DNA from: Candidatus Omnitrophota bacterium
GTDB taxonomy: Bacteria; Omnitrophota; Gorgyraeia; 2-01-FULL-45-10
DNA: 64,000 nucleotides
Assembly: GCA_030695905.1 (NCBI GenBank)
Contig: JAUYOL010000004.1
Span: 2,874-66,873, forward strand
Reading direction: 5' to 3'
This document shows, one piece after another, positions 3,448-40,012 of this stretch (the stretch's first letter is position 1; each line of letters opens with the position of its first letter). The notes beneath the pieces were generated by a model that made no database searches, was not told where the DNA came from, and was given only the letters and a program-made list of their open reading frames with translations. The translations under genes were made by a program, and so were the position numbers.

Positions 3448-3523
3448 GGGCCCGTAGCTCAGTCGGTAGAGCAGGAGACTCATAATCTCTTGGTCCAAGG
3501 TTCGAGTCCTTGCGGGCCCACCA
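3448..3523 (+). tRNA. tRNA-Met (anticodon CAT). Elongator Met or lysidine-modified Ile2; G1:C72 argues against initiator.
   Basis: The cloverleaf was read by eye. Acceptor GGGCCCG pairs with CGGGCCC. D-arm is TAGCTCAGTCGGTAGAGC. Anticodon stem GGAGA/TCTCT carries loop CTCATAA. T-arm GGTTCGAGTCC is followed by an encoded CCA. Confidence 0.85.
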
Positions 3524-3572: not shown

Positions 3573-3649
3573 GGGCACTTAGCTCAGCTGGTTAGAGCGC
3601 TGCGCTCACATCGCAGAGGTCAGAGGTTCGAGTCCTCCAGTGCCCACCA
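3573..3649 (+). tRNA. tRNA-Val (anticodon CAC)
   Basis: Acceptor GGGCACT pairs with AGTGCCC. D-arm is AGCTCAGCTGGTTAGAGC. Anticodon stem CTGCG/CGCAG carries loop CTCACAT. T-arm GGTTCGAGTCC is followed by an encoded CCA. Confidence 0.85.
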
Positions 3650-3667: not shown

Positions 3668-4381
3668 ATGATAAATCTCGAAGAACAGATTAAGTTACTG
3701 GTCGAACTCCAAGGGCTCGATACGCAAATTTTCAGGCGCGAAAAAGACCTATTTGACATGCCTGAAAATTTAAAGAAGCTCGACGAAGAGTTTAAAGCCA
3801 AGATGGCAGGCCTGAAAGCCCTCGAGGATAATTTAAAATCCATGCAGGTAAAGCGCAGGGACAGGGAGAATGATCTGGCGACTAAAGAAGGCTCTATAAA
3901 GAAACTGCAGACGCAGCTGTATCAGCTTAAGACAAACAAAGAATTCTCTACGATGCAGGAAGAGATAGCCAGGATCAAAGCGGATAACTCTTTGATAGAA
4001 GAAGATATTTTAAAGATATTCGATCAGGTTGATATTGAAAATGGGAAGATCTCAAAGGAAAAAGAATTTTTGAAGGGCGAAGAGGTAAAGCTGAATGACC
4101 AGAAACGTAAAGTAGAAGAAGAGACCAAGCGCATAAAAGCAGAAGCAGATTCACTAAAGACGCAAAGGGTTGCGCTTGTGGAAAAGGTGGATAAGACAAT
4201 TCTTGCCAGATATGACAGGATAATAAAGGCGAAAGACGGCCTTGCGGTAGTGCCGGTGGCAGGCGGATCATGCCAGGGATGTTTCAGGATACTTCCTTTT
4301 CAGGTTATACACGAGATAAGGATGAAGAAGGATCTTGTTATTTGTGGAAGCTGCGCTCGGATACTTTACCTTGAAGAATAA
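3668..4381 (+). CDS. COG1579/DUF164 coiled-coil protein with C-terminal C4 zinc ribbon (237 aa)
   Basis: A long coiled-coil region is followed by CQGC...x20...CGSC at the C-terminus (VPVAGGSCQGCFRILPF...LVICGSCARILY). Confidence 0.7.
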   Translation: MINLEEQIKLLVELQGLDTQIFRREKDLFDMPENLKKLDEEFKAKMAGLKALEDNLKSMQVKRRDRENDLATKEGSIKKLQTQLYQLKTNKEFSTMQEEIARIKADNSLIEEDILKIFDQVDIENGKISKEKEFLKGEEVKLNDQKRKVEEETKRIKAEADSLKTQRVALVEKVDKTILARYDRIIKAKDGLAVVPVAGGSCQGCFRILPFQVIHEIRMKKDLVICGSCARILYLEE

Positions 4382-4787: not shown

Positions 4788-4791
4788 TTTT

Positions 4792-5168
4792 AGCGAGCCG
4801 GATGGTCGCCCGCCGATAAGATCGGCGAGAGGAAAGTCCGAGCTCTAAAGAGCAGCGTAACGGCTAATGGCCGTCCGTCGAAAGACGAGGATTAGAGGAC
4901 AGAGACGAGGCTCCGTCAATTGTTGTATGACGGAGAGTGAGACGACCAATCTCTACGCGGAGCAAGACCAAATAGGTCTCGATTAAGGAGTTGCTCGCTC
5001 CTACTGCAAATTGATCTTCGTTAGCGGGTAGTAAATTCCGCGAAGCGAAACACGTCAGTATCGAGACGGGTAAGGTCGCTTGATCCTGCCAGTAATGGCG
5101 GGACTAGATAGATGACCATCTCATTCTGTGCAAACAGGATAAGACAAAACTCGGCTTACAGGCTCGCT
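4792..5168 (+). ncRNA. rnpB: RNase P RNA, bacterial type A (rnpB), about 377 nt
   Basis: The P4 strand GAGGAAAGTCCGAGCTC matches the universal GGAAAGTCCGGGCTC motif. GGAGCAAGACCAAATAGG matches the E. coli GGAGCAAGGCCAAATAGG. ACAAAACTCGGCTTACAGG corresponds to ACAGAACCCGGCTTA. The terminal P1 helix pairs AGCGAGCC (4792-4799) with GGCTCGCT (5161-5168). The region has no ORF. Confidence 0.9.
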
Positions 5169-5175
5169 AATATTT

Positions 5176-5987: not shown

Positions 5988-6006
5988 TAAGCGGAGTATC
6001 TGTAGT

Positions 6007-6891
6007 GTGCATCAGAGTGTAATGATTGAAGAGGCTATAAGTTCTTTGAATTTGAAACACGGTTCAATCGTGGTAGACGGGACGGTCGGCGGCGGCGGGC
6101 ATTCTCTCCAGATACTTAAGATGATAACCCCGGCCGGCCGCATGATAGGCATAGACGCGGACGCCAGCGTGTTAAAGATAGCGCAGGAAAGATTAAAAGA
6201 TTTTAGCGGCTCTTTCACATTAGTGAATGACAACTTCAGGAATATCGACAGGATACTCTCGAAAGAGAACGCAAAAGACTTGGACGCCATCCTTTTGGAT
6301 ATCGGCATATCGTCTTACCAAATAGAAGATACGTCAAGAGGGTTTAGTATAAAAAACAATAGCCGTCTCGACATGAGGATGGATCCCAGGTCCGGCATAA
6401 CGGCCTATGATATCGTAAATAGGTACAGCGAAAAAGACCTGTCGGATATTATAGAAGAATACGGCGAAGAGAGGTTCCATAATAAAGTTGCCCGCTACAT
6501 AGTTTACGCAAGGCAGAAAAAACCGATAGAGACAACTCAGGAATTGGCGCTGATTGTGCGCAGGGCAGTCGGATACAGATACAGAAATTCCAGGATAGAT
6601 CCTGCGACGCGGACATTCCAGGCTATAAGGATAGAGGTAAACGACGAACTTAGATCCCTGGAAGAAGGTTTAAAGAGCGCTATATTTTGGCTGAAAACCG
6701 GCGGACGGATAGTAGTGATATCGTTCCATTCGCTTGAAGATAGAATAGTAAAGAATTTGTTTAAAGGGTATGCGGAATTAGGGATTTTAAAAATTATAAC
6801 AAAAAAGCCTTTGACGCCTTCGCAGGATGAAGTATTTAATAATCCGCGCGCAAGAAGCGCAAAGATGAGAGTAGCGGAAAGGATTAAATAG
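6007..6891 (+). CDS. rsmH: 16S rRNA (cytosine1402-N4)-methyltransferase RsmH/MraW
   Basis: VVDGTVGGGGHS is the SAM-binding motif. Overall length and position after mraZ also fit. Confidence 0.9.
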   Translation: MHQSVMIEEAISSLNLKHGSIVVDGTVGGGGHSLQILKMITPAGRMIGIDADASVLKIAQERLKDFSGSFTLVNDNFRNIDRILSKENAKDLDAILLDIGISSYQIEDTSRGFSIKNNSRLDMRMDPRSGITAYDIVNRYSEKDLSDIIEEYGEERFHNKVARYIVYARQKKPIETTQELALIVRRAVGYRYRNSRIDPATRTFQAIRIEVNDELRSLEEGLKSAIFWLKTGGRIVVISFHSLEDRIVKNLFKGYAELGILKIITKKPLTPSQDEVFNNPRARSAKMRVAERIK

Positions 6892-7323: not shown

Positions 7324-9033
7324 GTGCATAGCGGAATTTTTAGGACTCGCCAGGTATTCGTCTTTCTTTTTTTTCTCCTATCTTTAATGCTTCTTATCGT
7401 ACGTCTATTTTATCTCCAGGCAGTAAGATATCCTTTTTTTCATAAGTTAGCCAATGAAGAGCACGCATTTTCTGAAAAACTACAGCCGAAAAGAGGAACC
7501 ATATTCGACAGAAATATGCGCGTTCTCGCGGTTAATCTTAACAGGGAATCAGTATTTGCAAATCCACGCCAGATAAAAGATAAAAACCAGGCCGCAAAAA
7601 TCCTCGCTTCCGTATTAAGTTTAGATAAAAATGTTGTTGCGGAAAAAATTTCCAGAGACAAAGGGTTCGTGTGGATAAAGAGGAAGATTACCACAAAAGA
7701 AGCCCTTGACCTGAAAAAATGCAATCTTAAAGGCATAGACTTTGTCGAAGAGTCAAAGAGATTCTATCCCAACCTGCAGTTAGCATGCCACGTTCTCGGC
7801 TCTGTCGATATCGACAACAAGGGCTTGGAAGGCCTCGAATCCCTTTATAATAGTTATCTTAAAGGCGAGGGCGGGTGGCTGGTATCTATGCAGGACGCGA
7901 AGAAAAACCTGTTAAAATCCTACCAGGAAGAATTTTTGGCCCCGAGAAATGGTTACAACCTTGTACTTACGATAGACGACGTTATACAGAATATAGCCGA
8001 AAGAGAACTATTTAAAATGTACGATAAATATCACGCGAAAGGCGCGTCTATTGTAGTGATGGATCCAAAGAATGGCGATATCCTCGCGCTTGCCAGTTAT
8101 CCCAATTTTAACCTTAACAATGTGTCTAACAGGTCAACGGAATCTTTAAGAAACAGGGCTATAAATGATTTTTTTGAACCGGGAAGCATATTTAAGATCA
8201 TTACCGCGAGCGCCGCTCTTGAAGAAAATGTAGTAAATTTCAATGACAAGTTTAATTGCGAAAACGGCGCCTGGAAGATAGGCAAAAGGGTTTTACATGA
8301 CCACAGGCCGCATGGTATATTAACATTTAAGGAGGTCATTGAAAAATCCAGCAACATAGGTACGGTAAAAGTAGCCAGTCTTTTTGGACCCAAGAAGATG
8401 TATGAGTATATGCGTCTTTTCGGATTTTATGAAAGGACAGGCATAGATTTGCCGGGTGAGGTAGTAGGCATGAACAGGCCCCTGGCTGGCTGGACCCCAT
8501 CAAGCATGTATGCGATACCGATGGGTCAGGAGGTGACCTCCACGACCATGCAGCTTGCGCGCGCGATGGCGGTTATAGCGGATAACGGATTTTTAGTCAA
8601 ACCCCGTATAGTTAAAAAGATCATAGATGAAGATGGCGAAGTGGTGAAAGAGTTTCCTATCCAGGTGACGAGGAAGGTCATTTCTCCACAGGTTGCGGCC
8701 AAGGTAAGAGGGCTCCTGATGGGTGTCATTGAATCCGGCACAGGGCAAAAGGCCAAGATGGAAGAGTTCAGCGCGGGAGGAAAGACCGGCACGGCGCAGA
8801 AGGTAATCGGTGGTTTGTACTCGCACGATAGCTTTGTGGCTTCATTTATAGGTTTTGCTCCGGTGTCGAAACCGGTCCTCGCTGTAGCTGTATGTGTTGA
8901 TGAGCCGCGGCCTGTATATTATGGAGGTGATGTGGCCGCTCCTGTTTTTAAAAATGTCGTAGACGAGTCTTTAAAATACCTTAATATAAAAGATGCATAT
9001 ATGCCTGTGAGGCAGGCCATCGCGAAGCGATAG
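7324..9033 (+). CDS. ftsI: Peptidoglycan D,D-transpeptidase FtsI (class B PBP, PBP3)
   Basis: It has an N-terminal TM and PBP dimerisation domain. The transpeptidase motifs SIFK (SxxK), SSN and KTGT are present. Confidence 0.9.
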   Translation: MHSGIFRTRQVFVFLFFLLSLMLLIVRLFYLQAVRYPFFHKLANEEHAFSEKLQPKRGTIFDRNMRVLAVNLNRESVFANPRQIKDKNQAAKILASVLSLDKNVVAEKISRDKGFVWIKRKITTKEALDLKKCNLKGIDFVEESKRFYPNLQLACHVLGSVDIDNKGLEGLESLYNSYLKGEGGWLVSMQDAKKNLLKSYQEEFLAPRNGYNLVLTIDDVIQNIAERELFKMYDKYHAKGASIVVMDPKNGDILALASYPNFNLNNVSNRSTESLRNRAINDFFEPGSIFKIITASAALEENVVNFNDKFNCENGAWKIGKRVLHDHRPHGILTFKEVIEKSSNIGTVKVASLFGPKKMYEYMRLFGFYERTGIDLPGEVVGMNRPLAGWTPSSMYAIPMGQEVTSTTMQLARAMAVIADNGFLVKPRIVKKIIDEDGEVVKEFPIQVTRKVISPQVAAKVRGLLMGVIESGTGQKAKMEEFSAGGKTGTAQKVIGGLYSHDSFVASFIGFAPVSKPVLAVAVCVDEPRPVYYGGDVAAPVFKNVVDESLKYLNIKDAYMPVRQAIAKR

Positions 9034-33309: not shown

Positions 33310-34343
33310 GGGACTTCATATATTCGTTAATGACCGATAAGAAGAATGGTTTTTTCTACGACATCTTTAAATTTAAGCTCTATCTGGTTTCGCTTATATA
33401 TGGTTTCGCTATAGCGGTCAGAAGAGTCTTTTATAAATTCGGCATATTTAAGATGCGTAAGGCGCCCCTTAAGGTTATAAGCGTCGGGAACATAACTTTA
33501 GGCGGTACGGGTAAGACGCCTTTCGTGGTGACACTGGGCCACATTTTAGAGTCGGAGCTTAAGAAGAACGCGTGTGTGCTTATACGCGGTTATGGCTGGG
33601 ACGAGCAGGCGATGCTGAAGAATAAACTCACCGATATACCGGTTCTTGTAGGCGAAGACAGGGCGCGCTCGGCTTTGAAAGCGGTTAAGCTTTATGGTTC
33701 AAATACAGCGATACTTGACGATGGATTTCAGCATTGGGAGCTTGGCCGGGATCTTGATATAGTGCTTGTCGATTCAAGGAATCCTTTCGGTAATTTGCAA
33801 TTATTTCCCAGGGGAGTATTAAGAGAGCCCAAAAAGGCTTTGCAGAGGGCTGACATTATAGTTTTTACGAAAACTGACGGAAAGAATATCAATTTGGAAA
33901 ATTTAAAGGCCGAGGCAGGCAATATAAACAGAACCGCTGTTTTTTTGGAAGCTGTTCATAAGCCGACTTATTTATATGAGAACAAAACTAGGATCACGCG
34001 CGATCTTTCTTATGTAAAGGGCAAGCGCGTTATCTTATTCTCAAGCATAGGCGATCCGTCGCATTTTGAAGAGACCGTCAGGGCCATGGGCGCGGAAGTG
34101 GTCGAGCACATAAAATTTACGGATCACCATAACTACAAGAAGAGCGACATAGAGCATATTTTAAAAAGATGCAGCGAAAGAAGTTTTGACTTCGTGCTTA
34201 CGACAGAAAAGGATATCGTGAAATTAAACAGGCTCGGGCTGTATATTGGATCCTATACAGTCATGGTTGTAGTGATAAACCTTGAAATAACGCTGGGGAA
34301 GGAGATCTTGATTGATAGACTCAATCGCCTCTATACTCGTTAG
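33306..34343 (+). CDS. lpxK: Tetraacyldisaccharide 4'-kinase
   Basis: VISVGNITLGGTGKTP is the LpxK P-loop. The gene overlaps waaA by 4 nt. Confidence 0.9.
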   Translation: MRDFIYSLMTDKKNGFFYDIFKFKLYLVSLIYGFAIAVRRVFYKFGIFKMRKAPLKVISVGNITLGGTGKTPFVVTLGHILESELKKNACVLIRGYGWDEQAMLKNKLTDIPVLVGEDRARSALKAVKLYGSNTAILDDGFQHWELGRDLDIVLVDSRNPFGNLQLFPRGVLREPKKALQRADIIVFTKTDGKNINLENLKAEAGNINRTAVFLEAVHKPTYLYENKTRITRDLSYVKGKRVILFSSIGDPSHFEETVRAMGAEVVEHIKFTDHHNYKKSDIEHILKRCSERSFDFVLTTEKDIVKLNRLGLYIGSYTVMVVVINLEITLGKEILIDRLNRLYTR

Positions 34344-36255
34344 AGGGCTGAATATCATATTTCATTTTATTCCAATAGAGTTCAACCTTTGGATAGGCAG
34401 GCGTATAGGTTCCGCTGCCTTCTTTATTAATAAGAAAAGGCGCATGATAGCCTACGCCAATCTTAAGGCAGCGTTCGCGAACGAGAAGCCCCCGAAAGAG
34501 TTGCGTGCGATCACTAAAAGAGTTTATATAAACCTCGTCCAAAGCTTTGCCGAGATCTTAAGCCTTACCAAGGTAAGTAAATCCTATGTGAATAAATATG
34601 TTGAAGTTGTAAATATGAACCGTATAGAGGACGCCGGGAAATCAGGCAGGGGCACCATACTTCTCACGGCTCACTACGGCGACTGGGAACTGTCGAGCCT
34701 GGTAAGCGCTATGAAGGGTTTTCCTATAACGGTCCTTGCCCGCGAGCAGAAGATGAAACGGCTTAATGAACTTTTAAACCGCCTCAGAGAGTCGAAGGGA
34801 TGTAAGGTTGTAAGGAAGGGGATGTCCACAAAGCTTATCTTCAAAGAACTTTATAAGAAGGATATGGTAGGGATATTGTCGGATCAGGATGCCGGCAAGA
34901 ACGGTACTTTTGTAAACTTTTTTGGCAGGCCAACATCGGCGCATGTCGGGCCTTTTGAAATAGCCAAGCATACGGATTCTATAATATTACCCAATTTTAT
35001 CGTAAGGACGGCCGGTCCATTTCATAAATTATACCTGGAAGATTACATAGATATGAGGGATGCCAAAACTCAGGAAGATGTGAAGGATAGTCTGCAGAAA
35101 TATATGTCTTTGCTGGAAAAGTACATCAGGCAGTATCCTGATCAGTGGTTATGGCTTCACAAGAGGTGGAAATCCACCCCAAAAAGGACCATCCTTGTTT
35201 TAAATGACGGCAAGGCGGGCCATCTGAACCAATCGCTTGCGGTAGCGCGCGAGATACAGAGGGCGAGGATGACCCAGGGATACAAAATAGAGGATACTTC
35301 AATAGTTACGGTGAGTGTTGAGTATAAAAACAAATTATTAAGACTTCTATTGGCATGTATTGTGCCCTTTGCAAGTTGGCGCTGTCAGGGCCGCATGTAT
35401 TGCTTGAGGATGTGCCTGAAGAAAGATTCTTACGAAAATTTAATGAAGACATACGCGGAATTTATAGTCTCCTGCGGTTCGAGCTTAGCTCCCGTGAATG
35501 TATTTATGAAAAAGGAAAACAACGCCAGGAATGTTGTAATTATGAAGCCGTGCCTTTTATTCGGTTTAAGAAAGTTTAATTTTATAATCGCGCCCAAACA
35601 TGACAGAATATGTGAACGTAAAAATGTTGTTATTACGACTTTAGCGCCCAATCTGGTGGACAGCCAGGCGCTGAAAGCCGCGGGAGAGAAATTGTCGGCC
35701 GGTGTGCGACTTGAAGGCAACAAGGTTATGGGGCTTCTGATAGGCGGCGATAATCCGGAGTTCAGGCTTTCGGGAGATTTATTAAAAAAAGTCATAAACG
35801 ATGTGCTCAAAGTTTGCGAATCGAATAACGCGGATCTGCTGGTAACGACTTCCAGGCGCACAAATAAAGAGCAGGAGTCGATTATAAAATCTATGTTACA
35901 GGGTAACTCCAGATGTAAACTGCTTGTAATAGCGAATGAGAGCAATCCAGAAGAGACGCTGACAGGCATACTGGCCTTAAGTAACGTCGCTATCGTTTCG
36001 GGCGAATCAATATCAATGATTTCCGAGGCGGTGAGTTCAGGTAAAAAGACAGTAGCTTTTGGCCTTAAGAAGAAGAAAAATTCTATTACAAAACACGAAC
36101 GTGTTCTCGAAAATCTGGCAAGAGATGGGTACATATCAATAGCCAGGGCCGGAGAGATGATATCGCTGGCCTCAAGAGCGCTAAAAGACACGTCGCCCGC
36201 GAAAAAGGTCGGAGATACGGACAAAATTTACGAAGCCATGAGGGCGCTCATATAA
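34312..36255 (+). CDS. Two-domain protein: N-terminal LpxL/HtrB-family lipid A acyltransferase fused to a C-terminal ELM1/GtrOC1-like putative glycosyltransferase domain (647 aa)
   Basis: Residues 1-290 have the lysophospholipid-acyltransferase HX4D-type motif (LTAHYGDWEL) and the LpxL fold. Residues 300-647 resemble the ELM1/DUF1022 family (KAGHLNQSLAVA ... LLIGGDNPEF ... VIANESNPEE). The C-terminal domain assignment is recalled and unverified. Confidence 0.65.
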   Translation: MIDSIASILVRGLNIIFHFIPIEFNLWIGRRIGSAAFFINKKRRMIAYANLKAAFANEKPPKELRAITKRVYINLVQSFAEILSLTKVSKSYVNKYVEVVNMNRIEDAGKSGRGTILLTAHYGDWELSSLVSAMKGFPITVLAREQKMKRLNELLNRLRESKGCKVVRKGMSTKLIFKELYKKDMVGILSDQDAGKNGTFVNFFGRPTSAHVGPFEIAKHTDSIILPNFIVRTAGPFHKLYLEDYIDMRDAKTQEDVKDSLQKYMSLLEKYIRQYPDQWLWLHKRWKSTPKRTILVLNDGKAGHLNQSLAVAREIQRARMTQGYKIEDTSIVTVSVEYKNKLLRLLLACIVPFASWRCQGRMYCLRMCLKKDSYENLMKTYAEFIVSCGSSLAPVNVFMKKENNARNVVIMKPCLLFGLRKFNFIIAPKHDRICERKNVVITTLAPNLVDSQALKAAGEKLSAGVRLEGNKVMGLLIGGDNPEFRLSGDLLKKVINDVLKVCESNNADLLVTTSRRTNKEQESIIKSMLQGNSRCKLLVIANESNPEETLTGILALSNVAIVSGESISMISEAVSSGKKTVAFGLKKKKNSITKHERVLENLARDGYISIARAGEMISLASRALKDTSPAKKVGDTDKIYEAMRALI

Positions 36256-36270
36256 AATTTTTCTCATGCT

Positions 36271-36471
36271 GCACGGCGGACCTTGCGGGATTCCACCTTC
36301 AGCGGACATAAATTTGGATTGGGCATCCAAATTTACTCGGAAAATTTTTGATGGCCGTCTAACCTGGCAACTATTATACAATTGCCCAGTTTGTCCGGCC
36401 GTTCTGGATCGCCAAAAGGAATCAAAATTTTTGACGCCGCTTCAGGCGGAATCCCGCAAGGTCCGCCTGTG
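36271..36471. repeat. GC-rich 201-nt structured element bounded by 35-nt imperfect inverted repeats (20-bp perfect core GGCGGACCTTGCGGGATTCC), with internal hairpins. Candidate ncRNA or MITE-like element.
   Basis: The left arm (36271-36305) pairs with the right arm (36437-36471). An internal hairpin AAATTTGGAT-tgggc-ATCCAAATTT lies at 36311-36334. Further complementarity includes TGGCAA/TTGCC and GGCCG/CGGCC. The only ORFs here are two mirror-image artefacts. Confidence 0.55.
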
Positions 36472-36803
36472 AAATGGGCGAAAAATTTTACGATCTGAGG
36501 CAGTTTAGGCCTAACCCTTTTGATCAAGAACAGCTCAGGCTAATATTAAGAGAGCAAGAAAAAATATTGAAAAAATAGTAAATGATAATTTATGATTTGG
36601 GTAGATTTGGCAGGTTGGGAAGCACAAAGGATTTTGTAAGTGGCCATTGTAAAACCTAAAATTATAGTTATGTAAGCACAATAAAAATGTTAGGTCTTTT
36701 GTAATGACGAAAAACGGTTATATTTAACATTTTTCTTATAAGATTTTTATCTTATTTGTGCGAACATAACGAGTTTTAGGTTTAAAGGAAGCACGAAAAG
36801 TTT

Positions 36804-38906
36804 ATGAACATATTACAGATATTACCATCACTGGAAGTTGGCGGGGTCGAGACCGGGACGATTGATCTGGCGAGGTACCTTGTAAAGAAATGCCACAAGG
36901 TGATCGTCATTTCGGGAGGCGGCCGGCTTGTAAGAGAGCTCGATAAGATGGGCGCGCGCCACTATACGTTACCGGTAGGGAAGAAGTCTATTTTTAATAT
37001 GATACGCATGGTTCGCGCGGTGGCCGATATCATAAAAAATGAAGATATCGATATCGTACATGTGCGCTCGCGCGTGCCGGCGCTTATAGCGTTTATAGCT
37101 TCCAGAATGACCAATCGTGTATTTATGACTACCGCTCATGGTTACTACAAAAAAAGTTTTATGAGTAGCGTAATGGGTTGGGGCAGATTCGTGATAGTGC
37201 CATCCAATATAATAGCTAAGCATATGGTAAGCGATTTTGGCGTGCCCCATGATCGCATACGTTTTATTCCCCGCGGCGTGGATCTGACAAGATTCAAATT
37301 CAGGAATCCTAAGACGCATTCCTCAAAGGGTTTTACCGTGGGGATGATATCAAGAATAACGCCTTTAAAAGGCCATGCCTATTTTATAAAAGCGATATCT
37401 CTTTTATATCGAAAGATCCCCAATCTTAAAGTTGTAATAGTAGGCAGCGCCCCAAAAGAAAAATACAAAGAGGACCTGGATCTGTTAGTAAGAAGGCTCG
37501 GCCTTGCAAATATTGTGCAGTTTGTGGGCGCCAAAGAAGATATCCCATCTGTAATGAAAGACCTGGATTGTCTTGTATCCGCTACAATCACCCCGGAAGC
37601 GTTCGGCAGGTCCATTGTGGAGGCACAGGCGTCCGGTGTACCGGTGGTTTCGACCAGAGTGGGCGGCGTTGTCGATATCATAGAGGATAATAAAACGGGC
37701 CTATTCTGTGACGCGCAGGACCCGCGCGATATGGCCGATAAGATATCGAGGCTTTACCAGGACAGAGCCTTATGGGAAGAGTTTGTGATCCAGGGCAGAA
37801 AGCGCGTGGAGGATAATTTTAATCTCGATCTTATGATGACCAAGACTATTAGCGTATATGAAGAAGCCTTGAAAAGTTTAAATATTCTGGTGATAAAATT
37901 AAGCGCGATAGGCGATGTTATATTAAGCACGCCTTCGCTTCGTTCAATACGCGCAAAACACAAGGACTCTGTGATAAAGGTTCTCGTTGGGCTCCAGGCC
38001 AAAGAAGTGTTGGATAGATGCCCGTATATAAATGACAGGATAATATGTGACTTTAAGGGCAAGAATAAAGGCTTTATTGGGCTATGGAGGTTGTCAGAGG
38101 AATTAAGGAAGGGCTGTTTTGATATAGTAATAGATCTGCAGAATAATAAAAAGAGCCACATACTTTCATTTTTGTCTATGGCGCCGCTTCGCTACGGTTA
38201 CGACAACGGAAAATTTTCTTTTCTATTGAACAAGAGGATAAAGGATGACGCGCCGTATCTGGATCCTATAGACCATCAGTTCAGGGTATTAAAGCTCGCG
38301 GGTATAAAACCTCTGGATAAACATCTGGAGATATGGCCTTCGCCTTCCGACGATGAAAAGGTAAGCGGTTTGCTCAATGAGAGCTGGATCAAATCAACGC
38401 AAAATATAGTAGGTATAAACGTGAGAGCCTCTTCGCGCTGGCTTTCTAAGAATTGGCCGGCTAAGTATATAGCCGAACTTTGTGACAGGCTCGCGAAAGA
38501 ATTCAACGTGCGCACAGTGCTTACAGGGACTAAGGATGATATCCCTTTCATAGAAAGGATAAGCCAGAACACTTCCTCGAAACCTATAGTGGCCGCAGGT
38601 AAGACAGGCATGCTTGAATTGGCGAGCCTTATAAAAAGATGCCGGGCTTATATAACGCCCGATTCCGCGCCTATGCACATCGCCTCGGCCGTAGGCACCC
38701 CATTTATAGGCTTGTTCGGCCCTACGGATCCGGCAAGGCATATAGCGCCATCAAAAAAATACGTAGTAATGAAGAAGGATCTAAAGTGCAGCCCATGCTA
38801 TAACCCGAACTGTTTGAAAAAAGTTAAATGCATGAAAGAGATAACGGTCGACGAGGTTTTTAAAGCTACCAAGGATATCTTAACCCAGAATGGCGCCGGA
38901 CAATGA
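36804..38906 (+). CDS. Bifunctional glycosyltransferase: N-terminal GT4 (GT-B, EX7E motif) fused to a C-terminal GT9 heptosyltransferase-like domain (700 aa)
   Basis: The N-terminal half has EAFGRSIVEAQASGVPVVSTRVGGVVDIIE, a GT4 EX7E region. The C-terminal half has ILVIKLSAIGDVILSTP and DSAPMHIASAVGTPFIGLFGPTDP, the GT9/WaaC-WaaF-WaaQ signatures. Confidence 0.8.
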   Translation: MNILQILPSLEVGGVETGTIDLARYLVKKCHKVIVISGGGRLVRELDKMGARHYTLPVGKKSIFNMIRMVRAVADIIKNEDIDIVHVRSRVPALIAFIASRMTNRVFMTTAHGYYKKSFMSSVMGWGRFVIVPSNIIAKHMVSDFGVPHDRIRFIPRGVDLTRFKFRNPKTHSSKGFTVGMISRITPLKGHAYFIKAISLLYRKIPNLKVVIVGSAPKEKYKEDLDLLVRRLGLANIVQFVGAKEDIPSVMKDLDCLVSATITPEAFGRSIVEAQASGVPVVSTRVGGVVDIIEDNKTGLFCDAQDPRDMADKISRLYQDRALWEEFVIQGRKRVEDNFNLDLMMTKTISVYEEALKSLNILVIKLSAIGDVILSTPSLRSIRAKHKDSVIKVLVGLQAKEVLDRCPYINDRIICDFKGKNKGFIGLWRLSEELRKGCFDIVIDLQNNKKSHILSFLSMAPLRYGYDNGKFSFLLNKRIKDDAPYLDPIDHQFRVLKLAGIKPLDKHLEIWPSPSDDEKVSGLLNESWIKSTQNIVGINVRASSRWLSKNWPAKYIAELCDRLAKEFNVRTVLTGTKDDIPFIERISQNTSSKPIVAAGKTGMLELASLIKRCRAYITPDSAPMHIASAVGTPFIGLFGPTDPARHIAPSKKYVVMKKDLKCSPCYNPNCLKKVKCMKEITVDEVFKATKDILTQNGAGQ

Positions 38907-40012
38907 AAGTACTGCATGTAAATACGCACATGAATATAGGCGGTATCGGCCGGTATATACTTTCATTGTGCAATGCGATGAAGAAGATGGGGATAGATTG
39001 TTCCGTTGCCTCAAGCGGAGGCAACCTGGAAGATGAGTTAAAAGAAAACGGTATAAAGCATAAGTACATAGGTATAAAGACAAAATTTGAATTTGGCCCG
39101 AAAGTTTTTAGCGCGGTATCGCCTTTAGCTAATATAATTATGGAGGAAGGCGTAAATTTGGTCCATGCGCACACAAGGGTTTCGCAAGTTGTCTCTTTCC
39201 TGGCATCACGTAAAGCAGAGGCTCATTATGTATCGACGTGCCATGGTTTTTTTAAACCCAAATTATCGAGAAAACTGTTTGATACATGGGGAGAGAGAGT
39301 AGTCGCGATAAGTGAGCCTGTAAAGGCCCATCTGGAAAGAGATTTTGGTATAAATTCAGAACGCATAGGGCTTATACATAACGGAGTCGATATGGATAAA
39401 TTCTCGAAAAATTTTTCGAACGACGAAATATCCAAACTAAAAAGATCAATAACGCTTAAAGAAGGCCCTGTAGTGGGGACTATTGGCAGGCTCTCCTCTG
39501 TTAAAGGCCAGAAATTTCTTATTGAGGCGATGAAGAACGTGATTTCTAAAAATAATCTGGCGCAATGTCTTATCATAGGTGAGGGGCCGGAAGAAGATGA
39601 ATTGAAAAAGTTGGCCGTTGATTTGGGCATAGAAAATAACGTAAAATTCGCGGGCCCTATCTATAAAGACGCTAATATGTATCTTGCATGCATGGATGTA
39701 TTTGTGCTGCCTTCGATAAAAGAGGGGCTGGGCCTTGCGCTGCTCGAGGCGATGGCCGCCGCAAGACCGTGCGTAGCATCAGATATAGGCGGAATAAGGG
39801 ATATAGTTAAGGACAGGGATAATGGCATGCTCGTCCCTGTGGCCGATATCAGCGCGATGGCAGATTCTATATCGAAACTTTTGAGTGATAAGGCCGCCGC
39901 GATGCGGCTTGGGCAAAATGGAAGAGAGTTTGTGAAAGAAAATTTCTCAATTACCGTTATGGCTGAAAAGATGAGCAGGCTCTACAGGGAGGTAGTAAGT
40001 GGCAAACAGTAA
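38903..40012 (+). CDS. GT4-family glycosyltransferase (369 aa)
   Basis: GT-B fold with an EX7E region (EGLGLALLEAMAAARPCVASDIGGIRDIV). It overlaps the upstream gene as ATGA. Confidence 0.8.
   Translation: MKVLHVNTHMNIGGIGRYILSLCNAMKKMGIDCSVASSGGNLEDELKENGIKHKYIGIKTKFEFGPKVFSAVSPLANIIMEEGVNLVHAHTRVSQVVSFLASRKAEAHYVSTCHGFFKPKLSRKLFDTWGERVVAISEPVKAHLERDFGINSERIGLIHNGVDMDKFSKNFSNDEISKLKRSITLKEGPVVGTIGRLSSVKGQKFLIEAMKNVISKNNLAQCLIIGEGPEEDELKKLAVDLGIENNVKFAGPIYKDANMYLACMDVFVLPSIKEGLGLALLEAMAAARPCVASDIGGIRDIVKDRDNGMLVPVADISAMADSISKLLSDKAAAMRLGQNGREFVKENFSITVMAEKMSRLYREVVSGKQ

Follow-up and report, generated by a model that had tools for sequence, protein, structure and literature searches.

A Y-shaped 200-nt palindromic element at a lipid A/LPS-core gene junction of Candidatus Omnitrophota and its likeness to small interspersed repeats

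The 64,000-nucleotide (nt) stretch of Candidatus Omnitrophota DNA analysed here (contig JAUYOL010000004.1, hereafter "the window") harbors a 200-base hairpin at positions 36271-36471, located between lpxL-ELM1, a lipid A gene, and a glycosyltransferase operon of the lipopolysaccharide (LPS) core. This hairpin is real, and we call it "module B". On balance, module B is likely to be a copy of a previously undescribed family of small (~200 nt), non-coding, interspersed palindromic repeats present in a clade of Candidatus Omnitrophota. By analogy, the family is best read as resembling the small mobile repeats ERIC, Correia, or REPIN, and as being MITE/ERIC/REPIN-like (MITE, miniature inverted-repeat transposable element). 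Its copies are dispersed, found in both orientations, present or absent at a given site, clustered or nested with other palindromes, associated with contig breaks, and non-coding, which together form the pattern of small interspersed palindromic repeats (PMC10969869, PMC3116915). A literature search on Omnitrophota repeats and palindromes yielded no relevant description.

The element and its fold

Module B is composed of a long closing helix (P1) and two inner hairpins (P2 and P3). Its parts, in window coordinates, are the following:

36271-36471, minus strand: whole element (module B), 201 nt; the structure-selected strand ("F strand") is the minus strand of the window
36271-36307: left arm of P1 (3' arm on the F strand), with a 20-bp perfect core at 36275-36294
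36437-36471: right arm of P1 (5' arm on the F strand), with its core at 36448-36467
36299-36300 (3' half) facing 36442-36443 (5' half), minus strand: tandem G.A/A.G mismatch in P1; the plus strand would give U.C/C.U
36339-36436, minus strand: P2, long inner hairpin, with base AAAAATTTTGAT / ATCAAAAATTTT (36341-36352 / 36421-36432)
36308-36336, minus strand: P3, hairpin of 11-12 bp, TAAATTTGGAT-loop-ATCCAAATTTA
36348-36377, plus strand: sigma-70-like match TTGATG-18-TATTAT, a consensus match only (9/12), pointing towards the glycosyltransferase operon

The inverted-repeat search returns the arms as 31-nt segments (36275-36305 / 36437-36467), 90% complementary and 131 nt apart; with one bulge they extend to 36271 and 36471, and their length is given as 31-35 nt. 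The 20-mer core, GGCGGACCTTGCGGGATTCC, is found a single time on each strand of the window, where 100 shuffles give an expectation of 0, and module B is the top-ranked local inverted repeat of the whole 64 kb. A preliminary description of this DNA, made from its letters, had reported such terminal repeats with a perfect 20-bp core, and rightly so. It had also mentioned an inner perfect hairpin of 10 bp and further complementary segments between the arms. The former is P3, the inverted repeat of which (36309-36319 / 36325-36335) is indeed perfect but measures 11 bp, and the latter form the base of P2. The upper part of P2 consists of an inner GGCCG/CGGCC plus GGCAA/TTGCC stem, topped by a variable, AT-rich apical loop at about 36373-36381. 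As for the GC-richness attributed to the element, it applies to the arms only (about 69%), the element overall reaching 50% against 44% for the window.

When the region is folded, as had been suggested, both strands beat their shuffled versions: the plus strand reaches -98.3 kcal/mol (z -7.8) and the minus strand -109.4 kcal/mol (z -11.0), and none of 200 shuffles does as well. The 2x2 internal loop of P1 is present in every fold computed. A covariance model of the element (R1) recovers 36271-36471 with 211.9 bits on the minus strand and 56.9 bits on the plus strand. Within the sigma-70-like match, the -10-like part lies inside the variable apical loop and is not conserved in other copies, and TTGATG is conserved among copies because it belongs to the P2 stem.

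Copies of module B at other loci

Homologous full copies were aligned from the window and from loci L017 (5721-5921), L019 (4053-4255), and L021 (4133-4334), together with a partial copy from L015. The copies are 76-85% identical, and those outside the window are carried by other Candidatus Omnitrophota contigs.

The gap between lpxL and the glycosyltransferase gene can be followed in four relatives, ranked here by the amino acid (aa) identity of the flanking protein. In L015 (83%), module B keeps its place and orientation in this gap, with 84% identity over 98 nt; beyond P3, its interior is swapped for another GC-rich palindromic sequence, and the contig then ends. In L016 (79%), different hairpins are found at the gap, and the contig ends 91 nt past the stop codon. 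In L017 (74%), the gap is filled by a 250-nt rod-like hairpin, "module A", and then by a reverse-oriented module B, directly before the glycosyltransferase gene and 78% identical to the window copy over 197 nt. In L018 (74%), the gap is just 76 nt long and devoid of module B.

Two details of these gaps can be added. The GC-rich palindromes of L015 (6040-6111; CCACCGACTTTAGTCGGTGG; GGGGCGTGGGGGCGATAGGCCCCAC) replace or interrupt P2 and may represent a nested insertion. The empty gap of L018 (5445-5520) keeps a 15-bp inverted repeat (ATCCCGTTACATCTC ... GAGATGTAACGGGAT).

Module B is also found in other gene contexts. In L019/L020, it is located between lpxB and a helix-turn-helix (HTH)-glnA gene, with module A before it. 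In L021/L022, it lies between genes encoding a histidine phosphatase (His_Phos_1) and an MscS-like protein, with yet another hairpin, "module C", before it. In P0126, for which gene context only is available, it adjoins ABC-2 transporter genes. Four or more loci are verified by DNA or by context; at two loci module B is sense with respect to host transcription, and at two it is antisense. Furthermore, a profile built on the spurious open reading frame (ORF) of the F strand (see below) was used as a handle to search protein databases. It retrieved 13 clusters and then 36 representative clusters carrying the element, many of them on contigs of 0.5-1.5 kb, and the clusters exhibit at least 12 different N- or C-terminal flanks. 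Contigs from four independent assemblies terminate at or within the element region. The Omnitrophota-like contig of L021 that carries module B also possesses, at 7726-7944, a gene with a match to the Pfam family MamI (magnetosome protein).

Covariation, strand preference, and constraint

The four full copies and the partial one share a Y-shaped fold in which P1, P2, and P3 meet in a three-way junction. The covariation alignment comprises five sequences only and was fitted to this same structure. In this alignment, standard pairs make up 97.2% of the pair cells, and both sides have changed in 20 of 69 pairs; 0 of 500 shuffles reach these values, and slid partners are 28-47% paired. Changes on both sides affect 13 of the 25 pairs of P1 and 3 of the 10 pairs of P3, the latter with 100% of its cells paired; in P2, pairs 43-188 (AU/CG) and 88-163 (CG/GC) covary 2:2. 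Variation is greatest in the outer 20 bp of P1, which read GGCGGACCTTGCGGG in the window versus GGCGTAATTTGCGG in L017, the partner arm matching perfectly in both cases. The near-invariant parts are the junction, the G.A region, and P3. The identity of the tandem GA/AG is retained in the window, L015, L017, L019, and L021, and in L021 the whole U-A pair flanking it is deleted from both arms.

Imperfect cells comprise 15 G.U against a single A.C (15:1, p=5e-4), and in the four full copies the same element strand folds 8-15 kcal/mol better than its complement. Together with the tandem G.A, the G.U excess and these fold energies favour one strand, the minus strand in the window. The strand asymmetry amounts to 15 kcal/mol with RNA parameters versus 3.4 kcal/mol with DNA parameters, and this shrinkage mildly favours RNA rather than single-stranded DNA (ssDNA) as the selected form.

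Conservation of the element exceeds that of the 4-fold sites in the neighbouring gene. At the 4-fold degenerate sites of lpxL-ELM1, L015 and L017 agree with the window at 41% and 37%, which is near saturation, versus 84% and 77% for the element. Such values suggest either that each copy is under strong purifying selection or that the family arose after the hosts had split and has moved between lineages.

Several of these features would also suit a set of structured non-coding RNA genes, free-standing or embedded in transcripts, with few paralogues per genome, maintained by selection for a cellular function; P1 would be a processing (RNase III) or protective helix, and mobility would be incidental or ancient. 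We consider this explanation rather unlikely, although it accounts for the usual pattern of functional RNAs shown here, in which the termini are less conserved than the interior junction, the G.A motif, and P3, and the closing stem covaries. It would likewise explain the bias of G.U over A.C, a strand asymmetry far larger with RNA parameters, the 76-85% identity with no burst signature, and the conservation far above that of 4-fold sites. However, no conserved promoter is seen upstream of the F strand and no U-tract or terminator downstream of it. The sequence upstream of module B varies from copy to copy, being module A, module C, or an AT-rich spacer, and the element is sense at two loci and antisense at two. 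The close relative L018 lacks it at the same site, no Rfam family matches, and perfect duplexes of 17-20 bp are unusual for stable bacterial small RNAs.

Absence of coding capacity

Judged from its substitutions, module B is without coding capacity. Two ORFs overlap it:

36266-36472, plus strand: spurious 68-aa ORF spanning the element, with no Pfam match and not on record
36333-36527, minus strand: spurious 64-aa ORF on the F strand, not coding

Exact look-ups of both returned nothing on record. They had been taken for mirror-image artefacts, a view that holds: both read GGPCGIPP, and the substitution pattern is not codon-like. In the 64-aa ORF, substitutions are distributed as 36/38/45 over the three codon positions, with a synonymous to nonsynonymous ratio of 16:74 that does not differ from the control frames, and copies differ in their starts and stops. 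A small protein with the conserved pattern ILI.YGN.ERPDKL....GRLDGHQNFSE was rejected on these three grounds.

In P0153 (464 aa) and P0138 (152 aa), gene callers have joined both modules, A and B, in frame with the genuine gene that follows. The first roughly 150 residues of these chimeras are translated repeat.

Observations that weigh against a mobile repeat family

The reading of module B as an interspersed repeat has to be set against the observations gathered in this section. A single copy is present within the 64-kb window according to the 20-mer, inverted-repeat, and R1 searches, R1 having found no additional or diverged copy in the window or in 10 other loci searched. Exact 20-mer scans of the GTDB representative genomes and JGI metagenomes returned only chance matches to a single arm, in high-GC genomes. 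The copies differ by 15-24%, even where a single genome is possible, which gives no hint of a recent burst, resembles the outcome of purifying selection over a long time, and fits a functional RNA too. Compensatory changes in a palindrome can also be obtained by hairpin-templated repair of DNA. No transposase or recombinase is found among the 35 ORFs scanned near the element. Finally, no convincing or consistent target-site duplication is visible at the window, L017, L019, or L021, where fixing the ends to the base would take a closely related empty site. Such duplications are known to decay with age (PMC10969869).

As regards copy number, L017 and L021 originate from one sample, and their tetranucleotide correlation of 0.92 is at the level observed among pieces of the window. 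Two copies of module B in one genome are consequently plausible, from composition, but unproven.

The chance matches are 20-22 nt long, and the 20-mer extended to 21-22 nt amounts to 7 hits in genomes and 5 in metagenomes (L001, L003, L006, and others). Their hosts include Streptomyces, Actinomadura, Myxococcales, and Dehalococcoidia, they exhibit no other similarity to module B, and they are probably codon-biased coding sequence. A conserved interior 21-mer has no match among viral contigs, and blastn against plasmid and phage collections likewise returned none.

The preliminary description had proposed a MITE-like element, a proposal borne out in its main prediction. Copies elsewhere, an empty orthologous site, and both orientations agree with it; the single copy in the window, the lack of a visible target-site duplication, and termini that are the least conserved part do not.

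Comparison with known systems

ERIC/IRU elements are 127-bp imperfect palindromes of Enterobacteriaceae. Like module B, they are small, non-coding, intergenic palindromes inserted in either orientation and present or absent at orthologous sites. The likeness would extend to a low to moderate copy number and to a conservation far above that of the surrounding intergenic DNA, a pattern reportedly described for ERIC by Hulton 1991 and Wilson & Sharp 2006. There is no sequence similarity between the two, however, and module B is longer (200 nt), Y-shaped, and from another phylum. Both are presumed to work as hairpins within transcribed RNA (PMC10969869).

REPINs, which are REP doublets mobilised by RAYT transposases, form a long hairpin in ssDNA or mRNA, commonly display compensatory changes, cluster by insertion, and leave no obvious target-site duplication (PMC3116915). 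The hairpin and the abundant compensatory changes of module B are REPIN-like, as are the A+B, C+B, and nested L015 arrangements. In contrast, its arms are not self-palindromic REPs and bear no GTAG/CGTC tag, its length is about double, and copies in the hundreds are not seen. No gene for a RAYT (Y1/HUH transposase) is found among the ORFs scanned near the element, within 64 kb of genome.

Module B also shares with Correia elements (CREE/NEMIS) of Neisseria and with classical bacterial MITEs a size below 500 bp (201 nt with arms of 31-35 nt), the absence of coding sequence, an intergenic position near gene starts or ends, an internal promoter-like sequence, and a long double-stranded RNA stem that RNase III is predicted to be able to cut. 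It departs from them in lacking a visible TA or other duplication and a known parent insertion sequence, and in not being AT-rich. Furthermore, its outermost termini are the least conserved part and covary, unlike the conserved transposase site of MITEs. By these sequence features, and by a structure selected on one strand whichever way the host genes run, module B does not look like a classical cut-and-paste MITE.

The resemblance to 6S RNA (RF00013) put forward in the preliminary description rests on a size of about 200 nt and on closed ends, the 5' and 3' ends being paired in both cases. It does not survive comparison. With the covariance models of Rfam 15, no family, 6S included, is found at the gathering threshold in the window or at E<=10 in 36150-36850, and the three homologous loci searched give no match at E<=1. 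Module B displays a three-way junction instead of a rod with a central bubble, occupies several unrelated loci in variable orientation, and is absent from relatives. The chance that it belongs to 6S or to another known small-RNA family is vanishingly small.

Invertons, such as those of Bacteroides, deserve a closer comparison, as inverted repeats surround ~130 bp directly upstream of a surface-glycan operon here too, and related copies exist at several loci. Site-specific or homologous recombination of one 31-nt arm with the other would invert the 131 bp enclosed and switch a promoter of the LPS-core glycosyltransferase operon, leading to phase variation of a surface glycan. The internal sigma-70-like match does face the operon, the element has the opposite orientation in the same intergenic gap of L017, inversion has been reported for Correia elements (PMC10969869), and a Logan contig from the same sample breaks inside the element. 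Against this, the interior is fully self-complementary, with covarying P2 and P3 and with strand-specific G.U wobbles and G.A pairs, none of which an inverton needs, and the -10-like part is not conserved. Most copies are not beside glycan genes, the neighbours being unrelated (glnA, MscS-like, ABC transporter). The Logan break is at 36331 and not at the core edge, 36294, the point at which the assembly graph would fork if both orientations were present, and no recombinase or invertase is present in the 35 nearby ORFs. The L017 element lies at a different position in the gap, so its flip is explained by an independent insertion. Altogether, an inverton is very improbable. Integron attC sites do not provide an alternative either: neither end of the element bears GTTRRRY/RYYYAAC core sites, and the flanks are housekeeping genes.

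Genomic setting of the window copy

The element is flanked as follows:

34312-36255, plus strand: LpxL-ELM1 fusion gene, upstream flank (Pfam Lip_A_acyltrans and Mito_fiss_Elm1)
36472-36803, plus strand: AT-rich spacer outside the element, with several promoter-like sites upstream of the GT4-GT9 gene
36804-38906, plus strand: GT4-GT9 fusion glycosyltransferase gene, downstream flank, first gene of a heptosyltransferase/Kdo cluster

Module B starts 15-16 nt past the stop codon of LpxL-ELM1 (36255), consistent with the 16 nt noted earlier, and the 548-nt gap that bears it is the largest intergenic space of the window. The AT-rich region announced downstream is there as well: GC content is 21-34% across 36500-36800, and the spacer (~330 nt) contains four promoter-like sites for the glycosyltransferase operon. 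This spacer has no counterpart in L017 or L018. No terminator-like site (GC-rich stem plus U-tract) is detected in 35900-37000 on either strand, in agreement with the earlier remark that the hairpin is not a canonical intrinsic terminator.

This position raises the question of a locus-specific cis-regulatory RNA of the lpx/LPS-core junction, evolved in place as a terminator substitute, RNase III site, or insulator. Module B follows the lpxL-ELM1 stop by 16 nt with no other terminator, is conserved at the same place in the 83%-identity relative L015, and adjoins lipid A genes (lpxL, lpxB) in two of its four known contexts. But unrelated loci carry this element too, in either orientation, its selected strand is antisense to the operons here, L018 lacks it, and L016 has other modules instead. 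This explanation is improbable and, as the primary one, largely refuted; it survives only as a secondary, host-level effect. A double-stranded RNA stem serving as an RNase III site or operon insulator, which the preliminary description also offered, would be a plausible side effect of this kind.

The window has 63 ORFs of 90 aa or longer, 62 of them on the plus strand, in a compact arrangement with short or overlapping junctions. The genes include dnaG, rpoD, RNase H, and the start of the dcw cluster (mraZ, rsmH, penicillin-binding protein (PBP), and Mur ligase genes), as well as waaA, lpxK, lpxL, heptosyltransferase, and kdsABCD-type genes. The region is a strongly co-directional housekeeping one, with a cumulative GC skew climbing steadily over 34000-39000, the part profiled. 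A class A RNase P RNA (4790-5174, 207.6 bits) and two tRNA genes (3448-3520 and 3573-3646) are located between rpoD and the RNase H gene plus mraZ/dcw cluster.

Both flanking genes are fusions: LpxL-ELM1 (647 aa) joins an LpxL-type lipid A late acyltransferase to an ELM1/GtrOC1-type glycosyltransferase, and GT4-GT9 (700 aa) joins a GT4 to a GT9 heptosyltransferase. A metagenome-assembled genome (MAG) of Candidatus Omnitrophota encodes, on a 105-kb contig, a protein 100% identical to LpxL-ELM1, and the phylum has hundreds of homologues of it. LpxL-ELM1 has 937 homologues at E<=1e-30; among the matches listed, the best all possess the two domains and those named are all from Omnitrophota. Logan contigs of run SRR13727529 are 100% identical to the window. 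One of them stops at 36331, inside P3, and the next starts at 36673, leaving the MAG assembly as the sole support here for the 341 nt in between.

Neighbouring hairpin modules

Two other kinds of hairpin accompany module B. Module A, a second and unrelated rod-like repeat, is about 250 nt long and is found at these positions:

L017, 5455-5704: module A
L019, about 3805-4056: module A
L016, about 6005-6035: start of a module A

It has 32-nt terminal arms and nested inverted repeats, and its fold energy ranges from -121 to -146 kcal/mol. Its apex differs among copies yet stays palindromic, and it folds slightly better on the strand opposite to that of module B. Two unrelated loci have it immediately before module B, and ORFs P0138 and P0153 run through it. 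Module C, the third kind, is a rod hairpin of roughly 150 nt (L021, about 3945-4095; AAATTCGAGGGG...CCCCTCGAATTT). An obligatory A+B composite was considered and rejected: module A precedes module B in about 4 of 17 informative cases, the better strand of A is opposite, and the window is without A.

Proposed mode of action and significance

As an interspersed repeat family, module B would spread, or would once have spread, as a non-autonomous mobile element, the active form of which may be a folded single strand of RNA or ssDNA. Recognition would bear on the inner junction and G.A region and not on the outermost termini. Because the structure is selected on one strand whatever the direction of the host gene, the selected form would serve the biology of the element itself and not the regulation of its neighbours, and it may be a folded RNA or ssDNA intermediate or product.

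The window copy would then be a solo B module, antisense between lpxL-ELM1 and the LPS-core glycosyltransferase operon. All genes here being on the plus strand, read-through RNA would carry the complementary, weaker hairpin (about -93 kcal/mol, with a 20-bp perfect duplex). The local effect would most likely be that of a structural barrier or of an RNase III-type processing site uncoupling the two gene groups. The plus-strand hairpin could block read-through from lpxL-ELM1 or be cleaved in it, and the downstream AT-rich spacer would provide the operon with its own promoters.

Another, rather unlikely reading would make of module B a new class of structured RNA or ssDNA. In such a class, module B would be a promoter-independent cassette with a closing helix of ~30 bp enabling its excision (RNase III-type) or recognition at whatever site it reaches. 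An enzyme not yet linked to it would propagate it through a single-stranded intermediate, and selection would act on its three-way junction, with the tandem G.A as a protein-binding site. If true, this would amount to a mobile small-RNA gene, or to a new ssDNA/RNA-mediated transposition system in Omnitrophota, a large uncultured phylum.

The signature obtained from four full sequences is clean, with 20 covarying pairs, a G.U excess of 15:1, and a conservation about twice that of synonymous sites, so that module B would lend itself well to curation as an RNA or repeat family. In practice, the element is also a source of spurious "hypothetical proteins" (at least 36 clusters), and contigs of several independent metagenome assemblies end at or in it, the lpx/LPS-core junction being among the sites. 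At this junction, module B may uncouple the lipid A genes from the core-glycosyltransferase genes, which are nearly contiguous in relatives (76 nt in L018).

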